64,000 bases of DNA from Candidatus Sabulitectum sp. (lineage in GTDB: Bacteria > Fermentibacterota > Fermentibacteria > Fermentibacterales > JCC-6), in NCBI GenBank assembly GCA_023139045.1, contig JAGLOJ010000012.1, forward strand, positions 9,725 through 73,724, read 5' to 3'. Shown here piece by piece: positions 6,216-21,686 of this stretch; position 1 is the first letter of the stretch; each line of letters starts with the position of its first letter. Under the pieces are notes generated by a model. That model saw only the letters and a list, made by a program, of their open reading frames with translations, did not search any database and was not told the origin of the DNA. Position numbers and translations under genes: made by a program.

Positions 6216-6892
6216 TTGCTTGAGATAGTTGTTTTGCCTTCTTTGCCCAATACTCCAGTTGGATTGGTAATTGCCAGTTGTATCTTCTATCTTGCAGAAA
6301 ACGAAACTGTAATAGTTCATTCCATTGGCTCTGACGGCAATCTGCTGGGAAGCTGGGATTTTTCCAACAGTGGTATTCACAGCATCTCCGGAATAGCTAC
6401 AGATGTTTCTCTACTTCGCAGTACCTGCTGATTCCGGATTCAGCAGACAGATCGATTTACAGAGCAAAAATGCCCCTCGGGTGCGAACCTGTTCAGTATC
6501 TGTTCACAATTGAAGATGAAATTGAAGTGCACGATATCGCATGGGGTTGCGTCGTGTTTCCTGTTGCCTGCAGTTATGAAGAATCTCCCATTCAAATACG
6601 GGGAGCGTTGAAGAGGGATGATACGGCACTGTAATCTCAGTGAGTTTCAGCATTTGCTCGAATCCGGTGCATACGGGTGCTGATGTATATCTTTTCTGTG
6701 GACCTTGCCTTGGATGGCTTTGTTGCTCTTCAGCTGTATGATATCAGCGGCAGGCTTATTCAGTTGGAAACAACTGGTATTCTGGCACCGGACCTCATGA
6801 AATCTCACCGGGGAGTTTTTCTCCCGGTATCTACTTTTTCGTATGACCTGTGGAGAGTTCAGCAGAATATCAAATCTCATTTCCGCTCATGA
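6216..6892 (+). pseudogene. decayed T9SS-cargo gene remnant (C-terminal sorting-domain fragments spread over three reading frames)
   Basis: ORF fragments 6216-6431 and 6677-6892 lie in different frames. LQLYDISGRLIQLE... and, after a shift, ...SPGIYFF are hallmark T9SS CTD motifs. A protein-like segment in a third frame sits between them. Confidence 0.5.
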
Positions 6893-8655: not shown

Positions 8656-9017
8656 TTGATTACATCCGCAGATGGTTGAAATCCGACGATGCGGTAGTTG
8701 CCTGCTATGGCCAGGAAACCAACTTGAAGCAGGATGAGTCCGGAACCAATTGTTATTCCGAGGAGAACCTTTCTGAACCAGTGGCAAGTTGCGTACTCCC
8801 ACAGGGAGGAGTGCTCGAACCTCCTGAGATACAAGCGGTAGAAGTATACGGTAAGGAGGATGAAAAATGAGACCTGGATTGCTCTGCCTGGTATTGTGTT
8901 GAGAATTCCAGCGCCCTTGAGAAGAAGCTTTGCTCCTATTCCACCCAGGCATCCCATACCCACGAATACAAGTGCGATCATCATTAGAATCAGGGGGTGC
9001 AGGCGTTTCGTCCTCAC
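8640..9017 (-). CDS. N-terminal transmembrane portion of the same CPBP protease, separated from the catalytic half by a frameshift
   Basis: 125-aa polytopic membrane ORF ending ...KYFFS* inside a T7 run (A7 on the plus strand, 8644-8650). One extra T would fuse it in frame to MIMIGFIEEL... Confidence 0.5.
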   Translation of the reverse strand: MRTKRLHPLILMMIALVFVGMGCLGGIGAKLLLKGAGILNTIPGRAIQVSFFILLTVYFYRLYLRRFEHSSLWEYATCHWFRKVLLGITIGSGLILLQVGFLAIAGNYRIVGFQPSADVIKYFFS

Positions 9018-9152
9018 TCATTCTCCATATCGCTGAATGGAAAGGCTGATTTAACCGGGACTTTCTTTAAACGCTTCCTGTCACAATTCAATATACTACT
9101 GCTGTCTCAGTTATTCAAAAAAGCAGTCCCTCACAACAGAAAAGGGAGCTTG

Positions 9153-10010
9153 ATGGTTACTTCAGTGATTGATGTCGCGGATATCTACTTTTCATACGGC
9201 AAAGTGGAAGCAGTGAGAGGTATTTCCTTTTCTATGGCCAGGGGGGAGATTCTGGGATTCCTCGGCCCCAACGGAGCGGGTAAATCCACCACAATCAAGA
9301 TGCTCACCGGTCAGCTTTCTCCCAGATCCGGTTCAGTGTCTATTCTGGGAAAGAATCTTGTCAGAGATGACCCTGAGATTCAGGGCAGGATTGGTGTGTG
9401 CTTCGAAGAAAAGAATCTGTACGTGAACATGTCTGCCAGAGAGAATCTGAGGTTTTTCGCAGGGCTTTTCGGAATTCGGAATTTTAATCCCGATCTTCTG
9501 CTCAAAAGGGTATCACTGATTGACAGAGCCGATGACCGGGTCAGCAGCTATTCAAAGGGAATGCGTCAGAGGCTGATGGTGGCCAGATCTATTGTGAATG
9601 ATCCCGAAGTGCTGTTTCTTGATGAGCCTACCGAGGGTCTGGATCCGGTATCAAGCAAGTCAATCAGAGAGCTTATTCTTGAACAGGCTCGGAAGGGCAC
9701 GGCAGTTCTACTCACAACACACGATATGTGGGAGGCAGATGAGCTTTCCGACAGGGTCGTGTTTCTCTGCGAGGGCAGAATTCATGCAATGGACACACCT
9801 GACGAACTCAAAATGAAGTACGGGCACCGGACTGTCAGAGTGAAACTCCGTGATGGTGAGACAGTTCGTCGGGAAATCATCTCCCTTGATTCCCCGGATG
9901 CAGGGGAGAAACTGAAACAGATAGTTGAGAATGAGGGATTGATGACAATTCACACAGAAGAGGCAAGCCTTGAGGACATCTTCATAAAGATCACCGGCAG
10001 GGGTCTCTGA
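9153..10010 (+). CDS. ABC transporter ATP-binding protein (ABC-2/drug-exporter type)
   Basis: Walker A GPNGAGKST, signature YSKGMRQRL, Walker B LFLDEPTEGLD. AAGGGAG RBS precedes ATG 9153; the ORF track's 8997 start has a non-protein-like N-terminus. Confidence 0.85.
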   Translation: MVTSVIDVADIYFSYGKVEAVRGISFSMARGEILGFLGPNGAGKSTTIKMLTGQLSPRSGSVSILGKNLVRDDPEIQGRIGVCFEEKNLYVNMSARENLRFFAGLFGIRNFNPDLLLKRVSLIDRADDRVSSYSKGMRQRLMVARSIVNDPEVLFLDEPTEGLDPVSSKSIRELILEQARKGTAVLLTTHDMWEADELSDRVVFLCEGRIHAMDTPDELKMKYGHRTVRVKLRDGETVRREIISLDSPDAGEKLKQIVENEGLMTIHTEEASLEDIFIKITGRGL

Positions 10011-10012
10011 AA

Positions 10013-11083
10013 GTGAAGAGGAAGCTCAATCTCTTCAGAGTGTTTCTGATAGTAAAGAAGGATTTGCGGGAGTTTTCCCGTGACCGACTCTGGATGATCC
10101 TTTCTCCGCTGTCTCTGCTGATGTTCGTGGGTCTTCTCCGACTGCTTCCGGAGAATCCGGTTGATATAATCTCGGTTGGTGTGTTCCCATCCTCTTATTC
10201 TGTTTTTGCCGGAGATTCTGATTTTTCCGGCGCGGAGATCATCGGGTTTGAGAGCCGGGACGCCCTTTCTGTCGCGGTACTTGAGGGTGATGAGCTTCTG
10301 TTTGGCGTGGCTCTGGCTGAGTCAGGTTCATCAGTTGAGCTGTTCCTTTCTTCTTCCGTTACACCGGCGCAGAACAGGGCGGCAGCAAGTGCGGTTCGTG
10401 AGTTGTGTTATGTAATTCAGGCCATGCAATCCGGGGAGAATCCCACTGACGGTCTGCCGGTGCGGATTCCCGAGTTTCGAGAGATGTTTTCCGGTACCGG
10501 AAGAGTGTCTCTGAAGGATAAACTCAAACCGATGCTGTTCGTGATCATTCTGCTGGTTGAATCACTGGCTCTGGCCGGTCTTATCTCGGTGGAAATAGAA
10601 CACCGAACTGCTTCAGCTCTGCTTGTTACCTCCGCAACAACACGGGATCTGCTGCTGGCCAAGATTCTTACAGGTGTTCTGCTCGCAGTGACACAGGTTT
10701 TTCTGTTTCTTGCTTTTACAGGTATTTTCTCTTCAGGCTGGCTTCCCCTGGTAGTGACAGCATTGCTCGGAGCCTGGATGGCCTCATCTGTGGGGATGAT
10801 ATCAGGCGCCGCCGGACGGGATTTCATGGGTACCCTTTTTCTTGGAATGGTATTTGTTGTTCCCCTCATTATACCTGCATTTGCTCTGCTTTTCTCCGGG
10901 AGTCCCGGTGGACTGCTCAAACTGATCCCGTCATACGGACTTGTGATGTCGGTTTCTGATGTGATCGGGAAAGGAAGCGGTCTCGCTGATGTTGCTCCCT
11001 ACCTTTTTCAATTGCTTATCTGGAACAGCATTCTTGCCCTTATCGGGCTGTTTGTGCTGAAGAGGAAGGTGGAAGCACTGTGA
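10013..11083 (+). CDS. ABC-2 family transporter permease
   Basis: 356 aa with an N-terminal TM helix, a long periplasmic loop and 5 C-terminal TM helices, which is ABC-2 topology. It follows the ATPase by 2 nt. Confidence 0.75.
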   Translation: MKRKLNLFRVFLIVKKDLREFSRDRLWMILSPLSLLMFVGLLRLLPENPVDIISVGVFPSSYSVFAGDSDFSGAEIIGFESRDALSVAVLEGDELLFGVALAESGSSVELFLSSSVTPAQNRAAASAVRELCYVIQAMQSGENPTDGLPVRIPEFREMFSGTGRVSLKDKLKPMLFVIILLVESLALAGLISVEIEHRTASALLVTSATTRDLLLAKILTGVLLAVTQVFLFLAFTGIFSSGWLPLVVTALLGAWMASSVGMISGAAGRDFMGTLFLGMVFVVPLIIPAFALLFSGSPGGLLKLIPSYGLVMSVSDVIGKGSGLADVAPYLFQLLIWNSILALIGLFVLKRKVEAL

Positions 11084-12144
11084 GTTTTAACAGGGTACTG
11101 CTGCTGATGGGAAAAGATTTGAGGGCCTGTCCCCGATCTCCAGTTATCCTCTGGCTGCTGGTCATGCCTCTGGTGATTACTTTCTTTCTTCAAGTGGTGT
11201 TCGCCACCCTTTTTGAATCTGAACCGGTGCTGGGGATCAACTCTCCTTCCCGGTCGGTTATCCTCAGCAATCTTTCCTCTCTGGAGGGCCTTGAGGTAAT
11301 CTCCGCTGAGGAAACGGAGCTTCTTGAAATGCTTGATAACGGAGATGTGGATGCCGGTCTTTTTCTTTCTGATTCATTTGAAGATTCTGTACGGTCGGAT
11401 GGCAGGCCGGTGCTTCGATACTTCTCTTCCGCAAAGGGTTCACCGGCTAATTCCGCCGTTCTTCTTCTTCTTGTAATGGATGAACTGAGAACTCTCGAGA
11501 ATCGGCAGAACCTCTTTTCTGTTGCTGTGATCGCGCCTGACCGGGGAGACGAACTGCCCCTTTCAGAAAGAATGGTACCTTCGATGATTCTGGTGGTGAT
11601 GATAGTCAGCGGGATTTTTACACCGGCTTTCATGCTGGTGGAAGAGACGGAAAAAGGCACCCTTCTGGCAGTTCTTGCAACTCCTGTTGCTCTGGGCGAG
11701 GTTCTTCTGTCAAAAGCTCTGGTGGGCTTCTGCCTTGCGATGCCGATAACTCTTTTCACACTTGTACTCAATGGTGTTACAGGATTTGATCTGACTGCCC
11801 TTCTTGTCTGTTTCGCGGTGGGTACTGCGGTCTGCAACTGTATCGGGTTGATCTACGGTACACTGGCCAGGAATTCGAAATCTCTCTACACGATGGTGAA
11901 AAGTCTCAACATCATCCTGGCAGCACCGGTTATGTTCTATCTCTTTCCCGGCTGGCCATGCTGGGTGGCGAAGCTGTTCCCGACATACTGGTTCATGGAT
12001 CCTGTTTACAGAGTAACAATGCATAATGCCACTCTTCCGGATGTTCTTGGTGATCTGAGCGTTGCAGTGGTGACGGCGATTCTTCTGGCACTTGCCGCTG
12101 CTTCTCTGGGAAGGAGAATGCAGAACCGTCTGGCCGGAATGTAA
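11080..12144 (+). CDS. ABC-2 family transporter permease (second subunit)
   Basis: Same architecture as the preceding permease; 4-nt overlap. Confidence 0.75.
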   Translation: MSFNRVLLLMGKDLRACPRSPVILWLLVMPLVITFFLQVVFATLFESEPVLGINSPSRSVILSNLSSLEGLEVISAEETELLEMLDNGDVDAGLFLSDSFEDSVRSDGRPVLRYFSSAKGSPANSAVLLLLVMDELRTLENRQNLFSVAVIAPDRGDELPLSERMVPSMILVVMIVSGIFTPAFMLVEETEKGTLLAVLATPVALGEVLLSKALVGFCLAMPITLFTLVLNGVTGFDLTALLVCFAVGTAVCNCIGLIYGTLARNSKSLYTMVKSLNIILAAPVMFYLFPGWPCWVAKLFPTYWFMDPVYRVTMHNATLPDVLGDLSVAVVTAILLALAAASLGRRMQNRLAGM

Positions 12145-12145
12145 T

Positions 12146-12652
12146 TCAGTTGATGGAGACTGCTTCGCTCTGGATCCATCCCTGAATATCAAGATTTTCC
12201 GGACTGTCGCTCAAATCGACTTTGAACCAGGTTGCAGTTATGCCGAGGATGGCAGCGGCAGAATTGGCAGGAATGACTGCCAGTGGCGTTGAAGCAGTGT
12301 CCTGATCCGGGTACACCGGAGTATCCGTCTGCATCATTGCATAGGAAACATCCAGGACGGGTGCCCACACCACAGGAAGTGAATCTGCAGAGGCTGTGAT
12401 GCCGTCAGGTGCCAGCCATCTGTATCTGAAACTGCATGTGTTGGCGGCTTGCGCAACGCCGGGGTCGAAGCCAAACCACCCTGATGCTGTTTTTACTTCC
12501 AGTGTGACATTTTCGTCGGGCAGAAGCTGTGACCAGATTTCAGAACGGGAATCGGGTCTTGAGTAGATATTCAGTGTATCCTGCGGTGTGAATGTAATAG
12601 CGGCTGCTGTGGCTGCCATTGCTGAAACCATCCATATGTACTGCAGTCTCAT
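12146..12652 (-). CDS. secreted hypothetical protein, possibly tandem SH3b-like domains
   Basis: AAGGAGG RBS 6 nt upstream of ATG 12652. Signal peptide MRLQYIWMVSAMAATAAA. W/G-rich beta motifs (GWIQSEAV). Confidence 0.55.
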   Translation of the reverse strand: MRLQYIWMVSAMAATAAAITFTPQDTLNIYSRPDSRSEIWSQLLPDENVTLEVKTASGWFGFDPGVAQAANTCSFRYRWLAPDGITASADSLPVVWAPVLDVSYAMMQTDTPVYPDQDTASTPLAVIPANSAAAILGITATWFKVDLSDSPENLDIQGWIQSEAVSIN

Positions 12653-12892
12653 GAGAACCTCCTTTATTTTAAGTTCCGTGGTATGCAAGTAATGTAATTC
12701 ATATTTTCCGGGATGGCAAAGAAGCCTCCGACCTGAATATGGCAGAAATATCCTGATTTCGTCGGAATTGCAACTCGGCTTCTGTGGGAAAGTGTTTTCC
12801 GGAAAAGCCATGGGAATCTGCCTTTGACCTGAGCGGAAAAATTAGCGATTATTGCGGAAGATGAACCCATCCCTGGAGAGAAGGGGAGAGCA

Positions 12893-13510
12893 GTTGAGGG
12901 TTGCATTGGTGTATCCCAGGTACAGCATGAACCGTCACACGCTTTGTTTTTCTATGCTCTGGCGTATGTTGCAGTTGTAACGGTAGATGCAGGTCATGAT
13001 GTTGCTGTGGTTGATATGGGATATGGAAGGGGATGTTCTTTCAACTGTGTTTACTGCTACAGAATATTCGGCAGGAAAGTTGGACGAAGGTCACCGGAGT
13101 CAATTGTATTGTAGCGGAACTTGAGGAACTGGTAAGGCGTTTTAATATACAATATACTGGTTTTCCCGATGATCCGTTCACGCTGAGGGGGATTGTTTTG
13201 GAGATCTGTGCTTTGATGAGAGAGCCCACCCCCGGGATCAAGTGGCTCTGCCGCAGAAGGGTTAACACCCTCGACAGGGAGATGCTTGAGACGATGAAGG
13301 ATGTGACTGGATTTCCTACGGTATTGAGTAGGGTTGTGACATCATGCTGGACAGGATGAAACGGGGGGTAACAACCCGGCACTGCCTGAACACGCTGAAA
13401 CTTACTGAGTCTGTTGGAATACCTGCAGAAGGAAATTTTGTGACAGGTATGTCTGACGAGACCGGGCACAGGGAACTGTTGGAAGAAGCTATCTTTGGAG
13501 AAACCCCCTG
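12893..13510 (+). pseudogene. frameshifted, internally deleted paralog of the downstream B12-binding radical SAM gene
   Basis: Three frames carry colinear pieces: RVALVYPRY; ...VAVVDMGYGRGCSFNCVYC (CxxxCxxC); IFGRKVGRRSPESIV-AELEELVRRF...IKWLCRRRVNTLDREMLETM...; ...FVTGMSDETGHRELLEEAIF. Each aligns with the rSAM gene at 14910-16304. Confidence 0.55.
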
Positions 13511-13623
13511 ATAAGAATCCCGGCTCTTGTGTGTAAACACTTTAAACTGAGGGGCTTTGAAGGGCTGTTTAACGACTGTAGAACCTGCCTGGCATCCTTT
13601 TTTGGCGGGAGAAAGAACTGAAT

Positions 13624-14931
13624 ATGACCGTAAATTCTGTTTGTAATGTGAACAGGTACCTGGCACCTCTGCTTCCCCGGGCAATTCCCGTAATCTTTGC
13701 TGTGGTTCTTCTTCCCCGGATACTTCTATTCTTTTATCTTGGTGGAGAACTTCCGCAACCGGTGAGAGATCAGGCTTTGTACATTCATACAGCTGGCCAG
13801 ATCGCTACCGGTGAAGGTTTTTCATTCTCTGAGGATCTGGGGCTGATGAAGAATCTCAGGAATACAGATGATAGTCTTCAGCAGCATTGGACCGGAAGTG
13901 CAGGCTACATGTTCGGTCTTGCTCCTGTGGATACCCCGACTGCTGTGATGGAACCGGGTTATCCCGTGCTGCTTGCGTTGTTTTTCTCCCTGTTCGGTGC
14001 GGTAAGTGGATCGGTGTTTTCTCTCAACCTTCTTTTTGCTCTCGGGGGTGCTTTTGCTGTTAGAAAACTGGTCATGGATGTATGGGGAGCAGAGTCAGGT
14101 CTGATGGCAGCTGTTCTCTGGTCTCTGTATCCGCCTTATGTGTACTACACCGCCTATGCAATGACAGAAACTGCTCATTTTGCCCTGCTGATCATATCTT
14201 CCATGCTGGTTCTTTCCGCCGGCAGAGGAACCGGGAAGGGATTTACAGCCGGACTGACCACAGGTGTTTTCTTCCTGATTCGGGCCACCGCTTTGTTTCT
14301 TATTCCACTTCAACTTGCTTACCTCGCCTGGAGAAAGCAATGGAAAGCTCTGCTTTTTCTTTCTGCGGGATTTCTTGTTGCGGTGTCTCCCTGGGTTGTG
14401 CGAAACTGGATATCACTGGGCGAACCGGTGCTGATGCCAACAAAGGGGGCACTCAACATGTGGATGAGAAACAATCCTGAAGTACTTGCATTGGAGGGCA
14501 TCTTTGTACCCGCTGATATTCCAGTGAATAATCTTTCCATGCTGGAGTACCCATCCACCGATTCCATTCAGGGAGAGCTTGCAAGAAGCAGGGCACTGGG
14601 AATTTCAGCCAGAACCTATATCCTGAGTAATCCCCGGCTCATGGCCTGGCTTGCCTGGAATCGGGCAATCGCCTTTCTGGCTCCGGGAGGCAGCACCCTG
14701 GGTGCCCGGGGAATGCTTGCCGGTCTTCTCATTTATCCATTAATACTGTTCGGAGTGGTCGGTTTGTGGCGTAATCGATCTCATCCGGAAGCAGCATTCC
14801 TCTTTGCTCTCTTTGTTTTGTATCTTCTGGTTCACGCTATGGCGCACGGAGGGGTTCGGTATCGGTTGCCGGTAGATGCTGTATTTATCATCGGGGTTGC
14901 GCTGGGAACTTGCTGCAGGAAGGGGAAATAG
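13624..14931 (+). CDS. GT-C fold glycosyltransferase, family 39/83 (PMT/ArnT-like, polyprenyl-phosphate-sugar dependent)
   Basis: 435 aa, about 11 TM helices, with the N-terminal loop and YPPxxYY-type motifs of ArnT/PMT-family enzymes. Confidence 0.75.
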   Translation: MTVNSVCNVNRYLAPLLPRAIPVIFAVVLLPRILLFFYLGGELPQPVRDQALYIHTAGQIATGEGFSFSEDLGLMKNLRNTDDSLQQHWTGSAGYMFGLAPVDTPTAVMEPGYPVLLALFFSLFGAVSGSVFSLNLLFALGGAFAVRKLVMDVWGAESGLMAAVLWSLYPPYVYYTAYAMTETAHFALLIISSMLVLSAGRGTGKGFTAGLTTGVFFLIRATALFLIPLQLAYLAWRKQWKALLFLSAGFLVAVSPWVVRNWISLGEPVLMPTKGALNMWMRNNPEVLALEGIFVPADIPVNNLSMLEYPSTDSIQGELARSRALGISARTYILSNPRLMAWLAWNRAIAFLAPGGSTLGARGMLAGLLIYPLILFGVVGLWRNRSHPEAAFLFALFVLYLLVHAMAHGGVRYRLPVDAVFIIGVALGTCCRKGK

Positions 14932-16304
14932 TGAACAGGCTGAAACGAATTCTTTTCGTTTTTCCAGAGACCAGGTATCCGTCGGGGCAGCCGCCTCTGG
15001 GGATAGCCATGCTCTCTGCAGTAGCTTCACTGTGTGGTGCAGAGACTGTTCTCTGCGACATGTCCTTCCAGAAAAAGCCATTTGAGCATCTGAGTCATTT
15101 GCTGAAGGAATTCAAGCCGGACGCTGTTTCCATTACTGTGGTTACTCCCCAGATCAGAGCGACTCTTACTGCCTGCGAGGTTATCCGGGAACATGCTCCC
15201 GAGGCATACCTTATGATCGGTGGCCCGCATGCCACGGTGCTTCCGATAGAGACTCTTGAAACTTCAGGTGCAGATCTTGTTTATTCCGGAGAGGGCGAGA
15301 TAGCATTCAAACTGCTTGTTGAGGGAACAGACCCCGGGGAGATTCCCGGTGCCTGTTTTATGAAAGACGGGAAGGCGATTCTTGTTCCCGGCAAGTTGCT
15401 GGTGGAAAACCTGGATACTCTTCCTATGCCGGACAGAGACATTTTTGATATGAAAAAGTACTTCAGTACTTGGTATTCCATGGACAGAGTAGATCCCGGC
15501 TTGAAAGGCACCACGATTATGGGTACTCGTGGATGCCCTTACACCTGCACCTTCTGCCAGCCGACCCTCTCTGAGATATTTGGCAAAAAGACCCGCAAGC
15601 GTTCTCCGGAATCAGTAGTGAAGGAACTGAAACACCTTGTGGAGAAGTTTTCCATCAACGGTTTCATGTTTGAAGATTCCACCTTCATTGTTGACCATAA
15701 GTGGGTTACCGATATCTGTTCACTGATGAACAGCGAGGGTTTGAAGCTCAAGTGGTGCTGTAATGTCAGGGCCGATCTTCTTACGGAAGAGCTTCTTGAC
15801 ACCATGGCAGGTGCCGGTCTTTCCAAGGTAAATATGGGGGTTGAATCTGCCTCACAGAGAGTTCTCGACGACATATACAGAAAGGGAATCACAGTGGAGG
15901 GCGTAAGAAGAGCTCTCCGGATGTGCCTCTCCCGGGGAATTTTCGTTCAGGGTTACTTTATGCTCGGTGCGCCGGGAGAAACTGTTGAGGAAATGAAGCA
16001 GACAATTGACTTTGCCGCAAGAGAACCATTTGATGATGCTCTTTTCGATATTACCACACCATTCCCTCACACAGAGCTCTGGGAGATGTCAAAGGAATTA
16101 ATAAATGAAGATTACTCTGAATTCGATTGTTTCCACAAGAGTGTATACACTTTTGACGGAATTACTTCTGAGCAGATAGAAAAATTGAAGAGAAATGCCT
16201 TCTGGAAATTTTATGCCCACCCGGCCAGAATACTGAGGACAGTGCGCACGGTTCTGGGGCCCAGGAACTTTAAGCGAACCATGCTGAAGGTGAGGAGAGT
16301 ATGA
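14910..16304 (+). CDS. B12-binding domain radical SAM enzyme (HpnJ-like class B rSAM)
   Basis: N-terminal Rossmann-like B12-binding region (ILFVFPE..., EAYLMIGGPHAT) followed by GTRGCPYTCTFC (CxxxCxxC). Alternative start GTG 14932 sits right after the upstream stop with an AAGGGG RBS. Confidence 0.85.
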   Translation: MLQEGEIVNRLKRILFVFPETRYPSGQPPLGIAMLSAVASLCGAETVLCDMSFQKKPFEHLSHLLKEFKPDAVSITVVTPQIRATLTACEVIREHAPEAYLMIGGPHATVLPIETLETSGADLVYSGEGEIAFKLLVEGTDPGEIPGACFMKDGKAILVPGKLLVENLDTLPMPDRDIFDMKKYFSTWYSMDRVDPGLKGTTIMGTRGCPYTCTFCQPTLSEIFGKKTRKRSPESVVKELKHLVEKFSINGFMFEDSTFIVDHKWVTDICSLMNSEGLKLKWCCNVRADLLTEELLDTMAGAGLSKVNMGVESASQRVLDDIYRKGITVEGVRRALRMCLSRGIFVQGYFMLGAPGETVEEMKQTIDFAAREPFDDALFDITTPFPHTELWEMSKELINEDYSEFDCFHKSVYTFDGITSEQIEKLKRNAFWKFYAHPARILRTVRTVLGPRNFKRTMLKVRRV

Positions 16305-17032
16305 GAGAAATTACCGTTACAATTGATGATGGAGGTATGCACCCCGCGGTAAATGCTGCAATTCAGAAGTGTATTGATTCAGAGAATGTGAACAGAGTAA
16401 GCATAATGGCAACCGGCAGCAATTTTGCAGAAGCCAGTATGATGGCCATGATGAACGGTGTTCGTGTTGCAGCACATCTGGATTGCTGTCAGGGACCCTT
16501 TCTGTTGAAAGGGAGCGATTTTCCTGAGTCGTTTTCAGTCTGGCTTAAATCTGCAGATTCACTGGCGGATTCTGTTCAGAAAGAATGGTCGGCTCAGATA
16601 GAGATGATCCTCTCCACCGGAGGAGTTGTTACTGCCCTGGACAGTCATCGCCATCTGCACAACCTGCCGGCCTTGCAGAAAGTTATTATTTCTGTTGCAA
16701 AAGAATACGGTATAAGAACAGTAAGATCCGCAGTACTGCCGGACAAGCTTATGAGATTTCCTGCAGGACTCAAGTTGAACTCTCTGGGTTGTGAATTAAA
16801 GACCAACCTTGAGTCTGAAGGACTTGTAACAACTGATAGAATGCTGGGGTTCGGCCGGGCCGGGAAGATCAATCGGAAATATTTAAGCAAGTTCACTTCT
16901 CTGTGCAGCGATGGTACAACTGAAATTGTGATGCACCCTGCCACCGAAAATGTCTGGTCTTCTGGTCAACCTGGAGAGCTTGAGTTGATCACCTCTGAAT
17001 GGTTCGGTGACTGGTGCAGAGGAAAACGCTAG
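16301..17032 (+). CDS. YdjC-family carbohydrate deacetylase (ChbG/HpnK-like)
   Basis: ITVTIDDGGMHPAVNAAI N-terminus; the LDSHRHLHNLP motif matches the YdjC HLDSHxHxH signature. 4-nt overlap with the rSAM gene. Confidence 0.8.
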   Translation: MREITVTIDDGGMHPAVNAAIQKCIDSENVNRVSIMATGSNFAEASMMAMMNGVRVAAHLDCCQGPFLLKGSDFPESFSVWLKSADSLADSVQKEWSAQIEMILSTGGVVTALDSHRHLHNLPALQKVIISVAKEYGIRTVRSAVLPDKLMRFPAGLKLNSLGCELKTNLESEGLVTTDRMLGFGRAGKINRKYLSKFTSLCSDGTTEIVMHPATENVWSSGQPGELELITSEWFGDWCRGKR

Positions 17033-18357
17033 AGTTATACGTTATCCTGCTGGCTCTGCTGGCAAGGCTTACCGTTTTTTTTCTTGCTGCCGGAGGTTTT
17101 TTCCTGGTGGGCGAGGGGCAGGTTCAGGCGAACATTGCTGAGAACATTCTTTCCGGCAGAGGATTCATGCTTTCAGAATCCATGTTCCACGACCCTGATC
17201 CCAGACGCGACTCAAGCCTTGAGTTTTTCAGGGAAACCGGTGGACTCTACGGAGTATTGATTCCAGAGCAGCCAAGTACCTTTTTTGTTCCAGGCTACCC
17301 TCTTTTCCAGGCCTTCATTTTTATGGTTACTTCTCCGGGAAACCTTCTTGCGGTTATCGGCGTTCAGCTTGCTCTGGGGCTACTTACGGTTTTTCTTGGA
17401 ATGCGTCTTGCTTTCCGATTTCTCTCCGGGCGGTGGTATATCGCTGCAGGAATATTTATGGCTCTTGATCCATTTGAGCTCTATTACCAGGCAATTCCAG
17501 CAACGCAGGCACTTTTCTCACTGCTGTTCATCGCAGGATTGCTTCTATCTTTACGCTTTCTTGAGAAACCGGATCTGCCCAGGGGCGTCTGGGCGGGTCT
17601 TCTGTGGGGAGTTGCATTTCTTGTCCGACCGGTTGCGCTTCCAATGATTGTATGGCTTGCCGTTTCAGCCCTCATTGCATGGAAATTCTCTAAAAAAATA
17701 ATACCGGCTCTTCTGCTTATGGTGGTTGTTTTTGGAGCCATTTTAATGCCGTGGGTGGTTCGAAACAGAAACACAATGGGCCGTTACCAGCTTCTTCCGT
17801 TACAGGGAGGAGCCCAGATGTGGGAATTCAATGGAAGAATATTTACCGATCTATTTCTGAATGACACAGAGGGTGCAAAGCTGCTTTACGAACCGGTGCG
17901 CAATACATGGTTGTCCCGTTTGAACAATGCCGAGCTTGCTGAATTTCCAGAATTTACCACGGAATCAGAATTTGAGAGGGATAGTGTTCTATACCACCGT
18001 CAGAGTAAGTTCATTAAATCAAATCCCGGTGTTTTTCTACACCTTTCCGCATGCAGATTCGTTGAGTTTATTAAGCCGTTTCCGCTGAACCGGTTTTCAC
18101 CTGTGCATACTCTGGTTGGACTGGTCTCCTTTTTCTGGGTTGGTATTTTCTTTTTCGGTGGTGCGCTTCTCATGCTGCGCAGGGGGTGGTCCGGTGTGTT
18201 TGTGGCTGGTGTGATTGCTGGATATATACTTATGCATCTGCTCACAGCCTCTGGAACACCTCACAGAGTTGCTCTTGATATTCCCCTGGTTATAGCATCG
18301 CTGATTGCAGTGAAGCATTCCTCTGAAAGATTCAGAGCCGGAAAAATATCTTCATGA
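17014..18357 (+). CDS. GT-C fold glycosyltransferase, family 39 (PMT/ArnT-like), second copy
   Basis: 447 aa polytopic membrane protein with the same fold signature as 13624-14931. Confidence 0.75.
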   Translation: MQRKTLELYVILLALLARLTVFFLAAGGFFLVGEGQVQANIAENILSGRGFMLSESMFHDPDPRRDSSLEFFRETGGLYGVLIPEQPSTFFVPGYPLFQAFIFMVTSPGNLLAVIGVQLALGLLTVFLGMRLAFRFLSGRWYIAAGIFMALDPFELYYQAIPATQALFSLLFIAGLLLSLRFLEKPDLPRGVWAGLLWGVAFLVRPVALPMIVWLAVSALIAWKFSKKIIPALLLMVVVFGAILMPWVVRNRNTMGRYQLLPLQGGAQMWEFNGRIFTDLFLNDTEGAKLLYEPVRNTWLSRLNNAELAEFPEFTTESEFERDSVLYHRQSKFIKSNPGVFLHLSACRFVEFIKPFPLNRFSPVHTLVGLVSFFWVGIFFFGGALLMLRRGWSGVFVAGVIAGYILMHLLTASGTPHRVALDIPLVIASLIAVKHSSERFRAGKISS

Positions 18358-19298
18358 AAATCCTGGTGGTCAAGACGCATGCCTTCGGAGACTCACTTCT
18401 TGCCACGCCTGCTGTGGCTGGTCTGATTGCAGCCGGGGACAGGGTCACAGTTCTTACAGGGCCTTCTTCGCTGCCGGTGTGGAAGCGCATGTCTGGAATT
18501 GAGGGGCTTGTTCAGTCACCTGCGCCCTGCTCCGCAGCTAAACTTCTGTGGTGGTCGCTCTTGAACATGCAGAGAGGTTTTGACAGAGTTATTCATCTTG
18601 GTTCTTCGGCAGGAGCTTTTCGGTGGCTTGGGTTTCTCACGGGAAAGAAGGCACTCAGCGGAGGTGATCGGAAAATCGGTTTTGGCATAGTCAGACCTGC
18701 TGCTCGGGATTATTGCAGAATCGCCGGGGTTCAGTGTTCATCCCTGAAACCGATCTTTCCCGTTGCTCGATCCGAATTTGATGCAGCCCGGCGACATACC
18801 GGCAGTGAACCTTATGTAGTACTTGCCCCCGGAGGAGCCAGGAATGTGCGGGATTTTGTGCCGTTGAAACGATGGCCCATGTCCCGGTGGGCAGAGGTGT
18901 CTCTTTACCTTCAGGCAGAGGGTTGCAGAGTGTTTCTGGTGGGTGGGGAACAGGACAAAGAGGAGATATCTTCTGTGACCGGGATCAATCTGGCTGGAAG
19001 ACTCTCCTGGGGTGAAACTGCTGCACTTGTTTCCGGAGCATCTCTGTTTTCAGGAAATGACAGCGGCCCCGCTCACCTTGCAGTTGCGGGGGATACTCCG
19101 GCACTTGTTCTATTCGGTCCGACAGATCCCGACTCCCTCTATGAGAAAGGCAGTATTGTTCCTGTTTGTGGAACTGTGTCATGTTCACCATGCTATGCAA
19201 ACAGTGTCTTTCCCGGTTGTACCGGAGACGAAGACTGTATGATTTCAATCGACACTGAAAGGGTGATTCATGCCCTTGAGGAGATGCTTCAAAGATGA
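18354..19298 (+). CDS. glycosyltransferase family 9 (heptosyltransferase-like, WaaC/WaaF fold)
   Basis: MKILVVKTHAFGDSLLATPAV N-terminus and GNDSGPAHLAVAGDTPALVLFGPTDP C-terminal motif are typical GT9. Confidence 0.8.
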   Translation: MKILVVKTHAFGDSLLATPAVAGLIAAGDRVTVLTGPSSLPVWKRMSGIEGLVQSPAPCSAAKLLWWSLLNMQRGFDRVIHLGSSAGAFRWLGFLTGKKALSGGDRKIGFGIVRPAARDYCRIAGVQCSSLKPIFPVARSEFDAARRHTGSEPYVVLAPGGARNVRDFVPLKRWPMSRWAEVSLYLQAEGCRVFLVGGEQDKEEISSVTGINLAGRLSWGETAALVSGASLFSGNDSGPAHLAVAGDTPALVLFGPTDPDSLYEKGSIVPVCGTVSCSPCYANSVFPGCTGDEDCMISIDTERVIHALEEMLQR

Positions 19299-20746
19299 AA
19301 ATAACAGCTCTTAACCCGCCTTTCATTCCTCATTTCAGTCGTGGGCAACGAAGTCCTGCAGTGACAAGAAGTGGAACGCTTTACTTTCCCATCTGGCTCT
19401 CCTATGCAGTGGGAGCTCTTGAGCAGGCTGGGCATACCGTTCAATTCATAGATTCTCCGGCAATGGATCTTGATCTTGCTGAAGTCCGCGAGAAGATCAG
19501 AGAATTCTCACCGGATATAATAGTGCTGGATACATCGACACCTTCGATTCTTTCTGATACTGAGACTGCAGATACGTTAACTGATACTGGAGCAGCAGTG
19601 TTTATTCTTGGTTCTCATCCATCTGCACTTCCAGAAGAGACTGTGTTGCTTGGACGGAAATTCCGTGGAGCGATTCTGGGTGAGTACGAAAAACCTCTCC
19701 TTTCAGTTGTGAATGCCCTTCAGGACGATCTTCCTCTGGAGGGGATACCTGGAACTGCAATTCGTCGCAGGGACGGAGCAGGCGTCGTGGTCACACCTCC
19801 TCAGGGGTATCTCACGGATCTGGATTCTCTTCCATTTGTCAGTTCTGTTTATGCTGCGCATCTTCCAGTTGCCAGGTACAACAATCCCAATGCACTCCAT
19901 CCCCAGGTAATGGTAATGGGTGGAAGGGGCTGCCCGAATCAGTGCAGTTTCTGTGTCTTTCCTCAGACCCTTACCGGTCGCCATTACAGAAGCCGTTCGG
20001 TTCAGAATGTTGTTGCTGAAATGAAGTGGGTAGAGGATAACATGCCGGAGGTGCAGGCGGTCTTTTTTGAAGATGACACAATTGCTGCGGATATGGAAAG
20101 GCTGCGACTGCTTTCCGCTGAAATTATTAAAGCGGAAGTAAAAATTTCCTGGACGTGTAATATGAGGGCCACAGCAGATTTCCAAACTCTTTGCCAATGT
20201 CATGCTGCAGGTCTTAGATCGGTTTGTGTGGGCTTTGAAAGCGGATGTGATGAGATACTGGACTCGATGCGAAAAGGTCTCAAGGTGGAGCAGATGGTGC
20301 GATTCATGGAAAGTGCCAGGAAGGCCGGCATTCTTGTTCACGGCTGCTTTCTCTTCGGAATTCCCGGGGAAACCCGGGATACTGCCAGGCGGACTCTGGA
20401 TTTTGCATTGAAACTGAACCCGGACACAGCCCAGTTTTACCCTCTGATGGTTTATCCGGGAACCGATGCATACACAGATGTTCAGAAAGCCGGGCTGCTG
20501 GTTACATCAAGCTGGAGAGACTGGTTGAAGGCAGACGGTACTCATGCCTGTGTTGTTCAGACACCTGACATGTCTCCAGACGAACTTGTTGAATTCTGCA
20601 ATCATGCCAGAAGGAAATTCTACCTGAGACCGGGATACATCATGAAAAAAGTATGGCGCAGTCTTTTTGATAAAGGCGAAAGACACAGAACTCTGCTTGC
20701 ATTCCGAACATTCCGGAAATACATTTTCAGGCGGAAAAATGACTGA
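19295..20746 (+). CDS. B12-binding domain radical SAM enzyme (second HpnJ-like paralog)
   Basis: B12-binding N-domain followed by GGRGCPNQCSFC (CxxxCxxC). Co-linear with the 14910 gene. Confidence 0.85.
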   Translation: MKITALNPPFIPHFSRGQRSPAVTRSGTLYFPIWLSYAVGALEQAGHTVQFIDSPAMDLDLAEVREKIREFSPDIIVLDTSTPSILSDTETADTLTDTGAAVFILGSHPSALPEETVLLGRKFRGAILGEYEKPLLSVVNALQDDLPLEGIPGTAIRRRDGAGVVVTPPQGYLTDLDSLPFVSSVYAAHLPVARYNNPNALHPQVMVMGGRGCPNQCSFCVFPQTLTGRHYRSRSVQNVVAEMKWVEDNMPEVQAVFFEDDTIAADMERLRLLSAEIIKAEVKISWTCNMRATADFQTLCQCHAAGLRSVCVGFESGCDEILDSMRKGLKVEQMVRFMESARKAGILVHGCFLFGIPGETRDTARRTLDFALKLNPDTAQFYPLMVYPGTDAYTDVQKAGLLVTSSWRDWLKADGTHACVVQTPDMSPDELVEFCNHARRKFYLRPGYIMKKVWRSLFDKGERHRTLLAFRTFRKYIFRRKND

Positions 20747-21686
20747 AGTCGCAGTAGTTATCCCCTTCAGAGGCCAGTGGGACACAGTAATTCCAACTCT
20801 AAGGGCATTGGTCACGCAGACAATCAGGTCTCGCATGACCGTGGTTTTGAGTGTCGACGGCATGGAAAAGCCACCTTCTGAGGTTGCTGAACTGGCAGAT
20901 GTCTGTGTTAACGGACGACAGGGAGGCCCTGCTTCTGCCAGGAACCGTGGCTGGCGAGCAGTCAGTACACCCTTTATTCTGTTCACCGATTCCGACTGTA
21001 TTCCTGAAACTACCTGGGCTCTGCGTATGGTTGATAAACTGGAGGGTGAATATCAGGCGGTGAAAGGGATATATTCTTCAGGCGGGAGCAAGCTGATACA
21101 AAGGCTGGCTCAAGTGGAGTTTGAAGAGAGATACCGGCTTATGGAACGGGCTGAAACTATTCATCTTGCTGATACTTATTCTGCAGGTTTCCGCAGAGAC
21201 TGGCTTGAGAAGCTTGACGGTTTTGATGAGAGTTTTCCTCTGCCGGAGCATGAGGATGTGGATCTTTCCTGGAGACTCACCGGAGCGGGGGGAAGGATCG
21301 GATTTGTCCATGATGCCAGGGTGGCCCATATTCACAGATCGAGCTGGACTGCCTATTTTGCAATGAAGTATCGCCGTGGAAAATGGAGGGTAATGCTGGT
21401 CAGAAAATTCCCAGCCAGGGCCGTGAGCGACGGTTATACTCCTCAGACCCTGAAACTGCAGATGCTGCTCTCTGTTCCGGTTGTGTTTTCCCTGTTTCTG
21501 CTTCCATTTTTTCCTGGTGTCACCGTTTTTTTCTGGCTCCTTTTTCTGCTTCTCTGTGCTCCTCTTCTACTTACTGCCATGGCATCTGATCCTTTCACTC
21601 TGCTGTTTGTTCCGTTTTTTGCACTGTGGAGGGGTACTGCCCTGTTTGCGGGTGCCCTGCGGGGTTTGACGGGAGGGAGCAAGTAG
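20739..21686 (+). CDS. glycosyltransferase family 2 with C-terminal membrane anchor (HpnI-like)
   Basis: VVIPFRG...TDSDCIP (DxD-type) GT-A fold followed by 3-4 C-terminal TM helices. Start MTEV overlaps the rSAM stop by 8 nt. Confidence 0.75.
   Translation: MTEVAVVIPFRGQWDTVIPTLRALVTQTIRSRMTVVLSVDGMEKPPSEVAELADVCVNGRQGGPASARNRGWRAVSTPFILFTDSDCIPETTWALRMVDKLEGEYQAVKGIYSSGGSKLIQRLAQVEFEERYRLMERAETIHLADTYSAGFRRDWLEKLDGFDESFPLPEHEDVDLSWRLTGAGGRIGFVHDARVAHIHRSSWTAYFAMKYRRGKWRVMLVRKFPARAVSDGYTPQTLKLQMLLSVPVVFSLFLLPFFPGVTVFFWLLFLLLCAPLLLTAMASDPFTLLFVPFFALWRGTALFAGALRGLTGGSK

Follow-up and report, generated by a model that had tools for sequence, protein, structure and literature searches.

A decayed B12-binding radical SAM gene at the head of a putative cell-envelope glycan operon in Candidatus Sabulitectum sp.

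The DNA analysed here, referred to throughout as the window, is a stretch of 64,000 nucleotides on contig JAGLOJ010000012.1 of Candidatus Sabulitectum sp. Alignment with intact orthologues reveals that 728 nt at positions 12894-13621 are what remains of a gene of approximately 1419 nt for a B12-binding radical SAM protein, here called family X, and that these are now distributed over three reading frames. The remnant lies immediately before a GT-C glycosyltransferase gene at 13624, a gene that came second in the ancestral operon and is the first of that operon to be intact here. The original prediction, that a frameshifted and internally deleted B12-radical SAM pseudogene lies directly upstream of a glycosylation operon, is thus borne out by lesions mapped against intact orthologues. 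The features of the region are as follows.

12724-12736, forward strand: an additional, degenerate copy of the -35 part of the promoter-like motif (GCCTCCGACCTGA); the main copy lies 96 nt downstream, at 12820-12832 (repeat family D3; alignment)
12824-12852, forward strand: promoter-like motif, TTGACC, 17-nt spacer, GATTAT (consensus scan; nine-genome alignment; also kept in loci L044 and L046)
12894-13621, forward strand: pseudogene remnant of a family X B12-binding radical SAM gene (three-frame translation; tblastn; DNA alignments to L009, L006, L007 and L010)
12894-12896, forward strand: ancestral start codon, ATG in the aligned intact syntenic orthologues and TTG in the window; TTG also in L044
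12952-12953, forward strand: 1-nt deletion, the first frameshift, with a stop at 12978-12980 in the original frame; L044 lacks the deletion (orthologue alignment)
13013-13031 (approximately 13026-13031), forward strand: junction of deletion 1, a net loss of 462 nt or 154 codons relative to the orthologues
13034-13057, forward strand: CxxxCxxC radical SAM cluster motif, still readable as C-S-F-N-C-V-Y-C (three-frame translation; orthologue comparison)
13103-13112, forward strand: 5-nt tandem duplication, ATTGT ATTGT, the second frameshift; L044 lacks the duplication (orthologue alignment)
13182-13183, forward strand: in-frame 3-nt deletion (orthologue alignment)
13301-13302, forward strand: 7-nt deletion, the third frameshift, within the conserved MK(D)AGCDWISYG stretch (orthologue alignment)
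13329-13331, forward strand: in-frame TAG in place of the invariant Ser codon of the GIESG motif (translation; orthologue alignment)
13459-13460, forward strand: junction of deletion 2, 223 nt, which changes the frame again (orthologue alignment)
13460-13621, forward strand: retained C-terminal piece of about 53 codons with the native TGA (13619-13621), matching the C-termini of P0002, P0003 and all X orthologues
13604-13615, forward strand: Shine-Dalgarno-like sequence GGCGGGAGAAAG before the GT-C ATG, with a 6-nt insertion that only the window and L044 share
13624-14931, forward strand: GT-C / PMT_2 glycosyltransferase (Pfam), whose orthologues, 65-95% identical, follow X in relatives

In a base-level alignment the sizes of the lesions account exactly for the reduction from the 1419 nt of the L009 orthologue to the 728 nt in the window. 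The first of the two large deletions removed most of the B12-binding domain together with the linker, in agreement with an earlier estimate that about 150 amino acids of this domain are missing, and a 7-nt tandem duplication (GATATGG GATATGG) sits on its junction. The second starts just after the G-x-x-x-ET motif, which most orthologues have as GMFGET, and stops just short of RDWAQGT. The colinear peptide pieces originally read in three frames were all reproduced, both by translation of 12840-13620 and by tblastn of the operon proteins against 12601-13700, which recovered the remnant piece by piece in order. The end then assigned to the remnant, 13510, proved too short, and approximately 50 more codons follow in another frame up to the native stop; neither the 223-nt deletion nor the C-terminal piece figured in that description. 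This last piece, which reads RDRAQGTVGRSYLWRNPLIRIPALVCKHFKLRGFEGLF...GGRKN and then stops, occupies a frame of its own and was first exposed by the C-termini of three fragmentary database relatives. These three were the only matches of a word-indexed protein search with the stitched remnant, a search whose sensitivity was too low and which led to locus L001. Only 2 nt separate the native TGA from the ATG of the GT-C gene.

The homology of the remnant is far beyond chance. Within the window the stitched remnant of 216 amino acids is most similar to the radical SAM protein encoded at 14910 (34% identity, E=4e-25) and also matches the one encoded at 19295 (28% identity, E=3e-13). With the C-terminal tail added (255 amino acids), it matches the Pfam Radical_SAM model with E=3e-17. 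A match to the Pfam B12-binding model (PF02310) is absent from the stitched remnant, and the intact L009 orthologue matches the same model with E=2.7e-18. On the retained codons the remnant is 63-67% identical in amino acids to the X orthologues, as against only 27-34% in comparisons with the two intact radical SAM proteins of the window. Significant homology, disabling lesions, an intact syntenic orthologue and relaxed or neutral evolution, by which a pseudogene is recognised, thus coincide at this locus.

A scan with the alignment of family X, in which each species was represented by one genome, returned 40 loci, approximately 35 of them with full-length uninterrupted matches. The named records are mostly metagenome-assembled genomes (MAGs) of Candidatus Fermentibacteria, Fermentibacteraceae, Aegiribacteria, Sabulitectum or Hyd24-12, together with L037, which is labelled Bacteroidota; the remaining records are 'uncultured bacterium' MAGs. 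In this one scan of a genome collection, all loci with at least 61% identity belong to Fermentibacteria-lineage MAGs (including the one labelled Bacteroidota), and the single other match is 29% identical. More specifically, in 12 Sabulitectum and Fermentibacteraceae genomes (L004-L013, L036 and L039) X is the first gene of the operon, exactly at the position of the remnant, and the flanking proteins are 65-91% identical to those of the window. The shared gene order is SH3 (reverse strand), X, GT-C, B12-radical SAM, YdjC, GT-C, GT9, B12-radical SAM, GT2 and polyprenyl-phosphate glycosylphosphotransferase, with an unknown gene after the phosphoglycosyltransferase. X encodes about 470 amino acids, and its reading frame is open in all of the 12 genomes except L013. 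A comparison with orthologous loci in relatives had been proposed as a check for an intact third radical SAM gene, and the outcome is positive. In L013, X carries one in-frame stop (L013:4636-4638) in a gene that is otherwise conserved and free of indels, on a contig with a coverage of 4.5x; this stop stems either from a read error or from a nonsense mutation of very recent date.

Intact X proteins combine an N-terminal B12-binding domain (PF02310) with a Radical_SAM core (PF04055) that carries the CxxxCxxC motif. Their highest NCBIfam scores are 187 bits, for BchE (TIGR02026), and 163 bits, for HpnJ (TIGR03471), far below the respective cut-offs of 481.35 and 577.6, and their best solved relative is AprD4 (PDB 6fd2) with 89 bits. 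Judged by these sequence comparisons, X stands outside every named family as an uncharacterised class B-type radical SAM protein; a literature search on radical SAM proteins in Fermentibacteria found nothing relevant. In deeper Fermentibacteria X occurs in other neighbourhoods without this operon, for example after another B12-radical SAM gene and a further gene, with no glycosyltransferase operon downstream. In L022-L033 and L041 (e.g. L030:6402-9999) a conserved block of three genes precedes X: an opposite-strand gene that lacks annotation, a second B12-radical SAM paralogue and another gene that lacks annotation. On visual inspection, the opposite-strand gene resembles a geranylgeranyl-reductase-type flavoprotein and the final gene an LpxL-type acyltransferase; if these assignments hold, the block hints at a lipid-related ancestral role for X.

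Because synonymous divergence (dS) is saturated between the species, dN/dS was dropped in favour of dN and of differences by codon position. Over 235 shared codons, dN between the window and the orthologues is 0.22-0.24, compared with 0.05-0.10 among the orthologues themselves, so that the copy in the window has evolved 3-4 times faster at non-synonymous sites; among the orthologues the amino-acid identity over these codons is approximately 88%. No such excess is seen in the flanking genes, where the divergence of the window from its relatives does not exceed that among the relatives. For the 14910 protein, for instance, the window is 84-91% identical to its closer relatives, and those relatives are 82-89% identical among themselves.

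Further evidence comes from populations that are more closely related to the window than any genome with an intact X, which were found by searching with the neighbouring GT-C protein; a metagenome scan with the same protein yielded only one distant (45%) locus. The first of these relatives (L044, with L045) has flanking proteins 92-97% identical to those of the window and possesses an X remnant of its own (L044:3824-4499), which shares the TTG start with the window and has deletions unlike those of the window, among them a large 3' deletion that removed the equivalent of window positions 13181-13575. The second (L046, with L047) has flanking proteins 83-88% identical to those of the window, and here decay has gone further still: at L046:5795-6000 the first 66 nt of X are fused in frame to its last few nucleotides. 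The resulting stub is a 23-codon open reading frame, MRVILVSRSCGNESHSLYFPSGN, which closes with the native TGA, 2 nt short of the GT-C ATG. L044 and L046 come from one sample (ERZ25074835 / SRR22302365). In a neighbour-joining tree of three flanking proteins, the window and L044 form a clade with 100% bootstrap support, and the clade that adds L046 receives 88%.

Between the window and L044 remnants the differences are spread evenly over the ancestral codon positions (12/14.5/16.5%), in contrast to the 8/7/41-46% of intact orthologues. The two remnants are 84% identical overall, no higher than the third-position identity in the flanking genes (77-93%). It is mainly this neutral pattern of substitution which indicates that X was probably already non-functional at about the time when the window and L044 lineages split; it then eroded independently in each. 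The only lesion clearly common to both is the change from ATG to TTG, which is not necessarily inactivating. The left breakpoints of deletion 1 in the window and L044 were weighed as possible proof of one ancestral deletion, a reading that was rejected because they are 5 nt apart and the window deletion covers the whole of that of L044.

In all three decayed lineages the deletions have spared the promoter-like element and the border with the gene that follows. The promoter-like motif, which every syntenic relative has kept, lies approximately 40 nt upstream of the ancestral start codon, in a block of about 50 nt that is nearly invariant across nine genomes within otherwise poorly conserved intergenic DNA, and a promoter role for it may be proposed from this conservation. 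The second copy of the -35 part is present in the window and L044, and L046 and the genomes with an intact X have a single copy; it looks like a duplication or insertion of about 96 nt. No terminator-like sites were found in 12400-13800, between the promoter motif and the GT-C gene, and the same interval gave no Rfam match, to a riboswitch or another structured RNA, at E<=1. The remnant is thus probably now just the 5' leader of the operon. An ABC-2 transporter cassette (window positions 8997-12144) lies between the CAAX protease and SH3 genes in the window, L044, L046 and L010, and is absent from this position in L007 and L009.

In the genomes with an intact X, the stop codon of X and the start codon of the GT-C gene are 1-3 nt apart or overlap and the Shine-Dalgarno sequence of the GT-C gene is weak, which suggests that the two genes were ancestrally co-transcribed and translationally coupled. 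The 6-nt insertion common to the window and L044 creates a stronger Shine-Dalgarno sequence (GGCGGGAG / GGAGGGAG), and one may speculate that it compensates for the lost coupling. These observations bear on the possibility that the promoter, the ribosome-binding site, the first 22 or so codons and the native stop have been kept by selection as a leader or upstream open reading frame that couples or tunes GT-C translation. Such a role would fit the retention, in all three decayed lineages, of the 5' end of X and of the last nucleotides before the GT-C ATG, the in-frame deletion that left L046 with a short frame closing at the native TGA, and the signs of ancestral coupling. In the window, however, the frame that opens with TTG at 12894 ends after 28 codons at 12978-12980, and no open reading frame of at least 40 codons reaches the TGA at 13619-13621. 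The window and L044 have instead gained the stronger Shine-Dalgarno sequence, the interior of the remnant evolves neutrally, the retained parts vary between lineages, and the 12400-13800 region offers neither an Rfam match nor evidence of conserved structure. A selected leader is therefore an unlikely explanation of what is preserved here.

The tandem duplication proposed in the original prediction fares worse. According to that proposal an ancestral unit of one radical SAM gene and one GT-C gene was duplicated within the operon, and the remnant is the decaying redundant copy of which 14910 (or 19295) is the surviving twin. The operon does encode three B12-binding radical SAM proteins, counting the remnant, whose best match inside the window is 14910, and its two GT-C genes are detectably related (27%, E=4e-21). 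Nevertheless, the remnant is orthologous to a separate, phylum-wide family that is intact at the same position in relatives, and X as a full-length protein shares no more than 26-32% of its residues with those encoded at 14910 and 19295. A filter-free search with the X core through 1.84 billion cluster representatives gave 995 proteins with E<=1e-30, a level that the 14910 protein, at E=4.5e-28 (114.6 bits), does not reach; X and 14910 are therefore not nearest paralogues and are ordinary paralogues within the superfamily. The presence of X without the operon in deeper Fermentibacteria, a gene order (X, GT-C, radical SAM, YdjC, GT-C, GT9, radical SAM, GT2) in which no radical SAM-GT-C unit is repeated, and an identity of just 27% between the two GT-C proteins point in the same direction. 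Nor does the remnant precede its glycosyltransferase gene exactly as the intact radical SAM genes do, as had been stated, since the 14910 gene is followed by the YdjC gene and the 19295 gene by the GT2 gene. A recent duplication is contradicted, and an ancient one is not documented by the remnant. Any duplication is ancient and unrelated to the decay, and the decaying gene is a long-established single-copy member of the operon; as an account of the remnant, the proposal is very improbable.

It is scarcely credible that the gene is intact in the organism and that its frameshifts and deletions are read errors or misassembly. Artefacts of such a kind do exist in family X: the copy at L001/L037 (CALODM010000009.1), on a Flye-style contig, is broken by four frameshifts. 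Comparison with the intact copy of L002, to which it is 97.6% identical, shows each of them to be a homopolymer indel of 1-2 nt. These frameshifts are probably long-read assembly error and not decay. The lesions in the window differ in kind: they include losses of 462, 223 and 7 nt, a tandem duplication of 5 nt, a substitution that creates a stop codon, and amino-acid replacements in 3-4-fold excess. More than 12 kb of adjacent genes are free of frameshifts, with ten downstream operon genes and the upstream transporter genes aligning over their full length to orthologues. The decayed remnant of the sister lineage was recovered identically in two independent assemblies (ENA and Logan), and two features of that lineage, its TTG start and the 6 nt inserted ahead of the GT-C ATG, recur in the window. 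Taken together, these observations argue strongly that the lesions in the window are real and that the decayed state was inherited.

L001/L037 was itself considered as a second pseudogene and rejected, given the homopolymer type of its indels relative to the intact L002 and a neighbourhood that is not syntenic. A Peptidase_U32 gene near its X copy is also split, and the label of CALODM010000009.1, 'uncultured Bacteroidota', looks wrong because the locus falls among those of Fermentibacteria. Programmed frameshifting or a split functional enzyme was likewise rejected for the window, in view of the absent cobalamin domain, the roughly 74 absent barrel codons and the in-frame stop.

Thus, the DNA at 12894-13621 is very probably a non-functional relic of X, the first gene of a conserved cell-envelope glycan or glycolipid operon of Fermentibacteria, which would have been inactivated before the split from L044 and then subjected to drift and independent deletions. 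According to this reconstruction, X was inactivated in the common ancestor of the window lineage and its sister L044; neutral drift would have followed, and separate deletions would have whittled the gene down in each lineage until about half of it was left in the window. No functional enzyme can be made from the remnant, which has lost the cobalamin domain and part of the barrel; what is left of its coding sequence is interrupted by four frameshifting lesions and one stop codon. The operon would still be driven from its ancestral promoter, with the remnant presumably transcribed as a 5' leader of approximately 770 nt. Its DNA may persist because it is located between a conserved promoter-like element and the GT-C gene, and deletions may shorten the leader provided that the promoter and the GT-C start region are spared. 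The downstream genes, all of them intact, presumably yield their product without the modification step of X. This loss is read within 64 kb of genome, and a second intact copy of X may lie elsewhere.

Elsewhere in the operon, positions 16301-21686 encode a trio resembling HpnI, HpnJ and HpnK, namely a YdjC protein (16301-17032), a radical SAM protein (19295-20746) and a GT2 protein (20667-21686). HpnJ is the best family match of the 19295 protein (341 bits, cut-off 578) and the YdjC protein scores 93 bits against HpnK, all scores of the trio being below the equivalog cut-offs. The presence of two GT-C genes, GT9 and a phosphoglycosyltransferase favours a polyprenol-linked envelope glycan over a hopanoid as the likely product, and the operon may represent a cyclitol-forming glycan pathway. 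A more specific proposal is that X is a Fermentibacteria-specific B12-radical SAM enzyme that modified a polyprenol-linked sugar or envelope glycolipid beside the HpnI/J/K-like, possibly cyclitol-forming, trio, and that its 5' stub and stop were possibly co-opted as an upstream reading frame for coupling to the GT-C gene; as a whole this is a doubtful conjecture. If it were true, the window, L044 and L046 would constitute a natural knockout series with which the reaction of X could be assigned through the envelope glycans and lipids of sister populations.

Two irregularities were encountered among the operon genes themselves. The GT-C protein encoded at 13624-14931 is closest to that of L007 (86%) among the genomes with an intact X, and the other operon proteins are closest to those of L009, a mismatch that could reflect rate variation or recombination within the operon. 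In L012 the orthologue of the 14910 radical SAM gene (L012:5904-7294) is split by a frameshift at approximately position 6725; in L039, a close relative (GT-C 96% and 19295 radical SAM 92.5% identical), it is intact.

For annotation, the consequence is that the operon in this genome begins with a dead gene, and three radical SAM enzymes should not be annotated. The loss of X is lineage-specific, and closely related populations display it at three stages of erosion; because the rest of the operon is intact, the step carried out by X appears to be dispensable in at least the clade of the window. The analysis also defines an uncharacterised B12-radical SAM family across Candidatus Fermentibacteria, which in one clade is tied to an envelope glycan operon of GT-C, GT9 and HpnIJK-like type, and this tie offers a handle for functional work.

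Three known systems provide points of comparison. With the class B radical SAM enzymes BchE, HpnJ and AprD4 intact X has in common the pairing of PF02310 with a CxxxCxxC-bearing PF04055 core in about 470 amino acids, and it falls far under the family cut-offs of both BchE and HpnJ. In hopanoid producers, hpnI, hpnJ and hpnK (encoding a GT2 glycosyltransferase, a B12-radical SAM protein and a YdjC-type deacetylase) make BHT glucosamine and BHT cyclitol ether, with glucosamine being added, deacetylated and ring-contracted by the three enzymes (PMC13459092). The operon in the window likewise has a GT2 (20667), an HpnJ-like radical SAM protein (19295) and a YdjC/HpnK-like protein (16301); it differs in adding two GT-C genes, a GT9 gene and a polyprenyl-phosphate glycosylphosphotransferase gene, and its HpnJ-like member is the 19295 protein, not the family of the pseudogene. 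The closest parallel to the fate of X itself is pseudogene decay as seen in bacteria generally. Such decay under a deletional bias is a general phenomenon, reportedly described by, for example, Mira, Ochman and Moran in 2001. The X remnant likewise exhibits frameshifts, a nonsense codon, growing deletions and neutral evolution, and the lineages examined here stand at different stages, from intact through half-deleted to nearly erased. It is ordinary, well-documented gene decay that involves no new mechanism and does not differ in kind; what is unusual about this relic is its position as the promoter-proximal gene of an otherwise intact operon.
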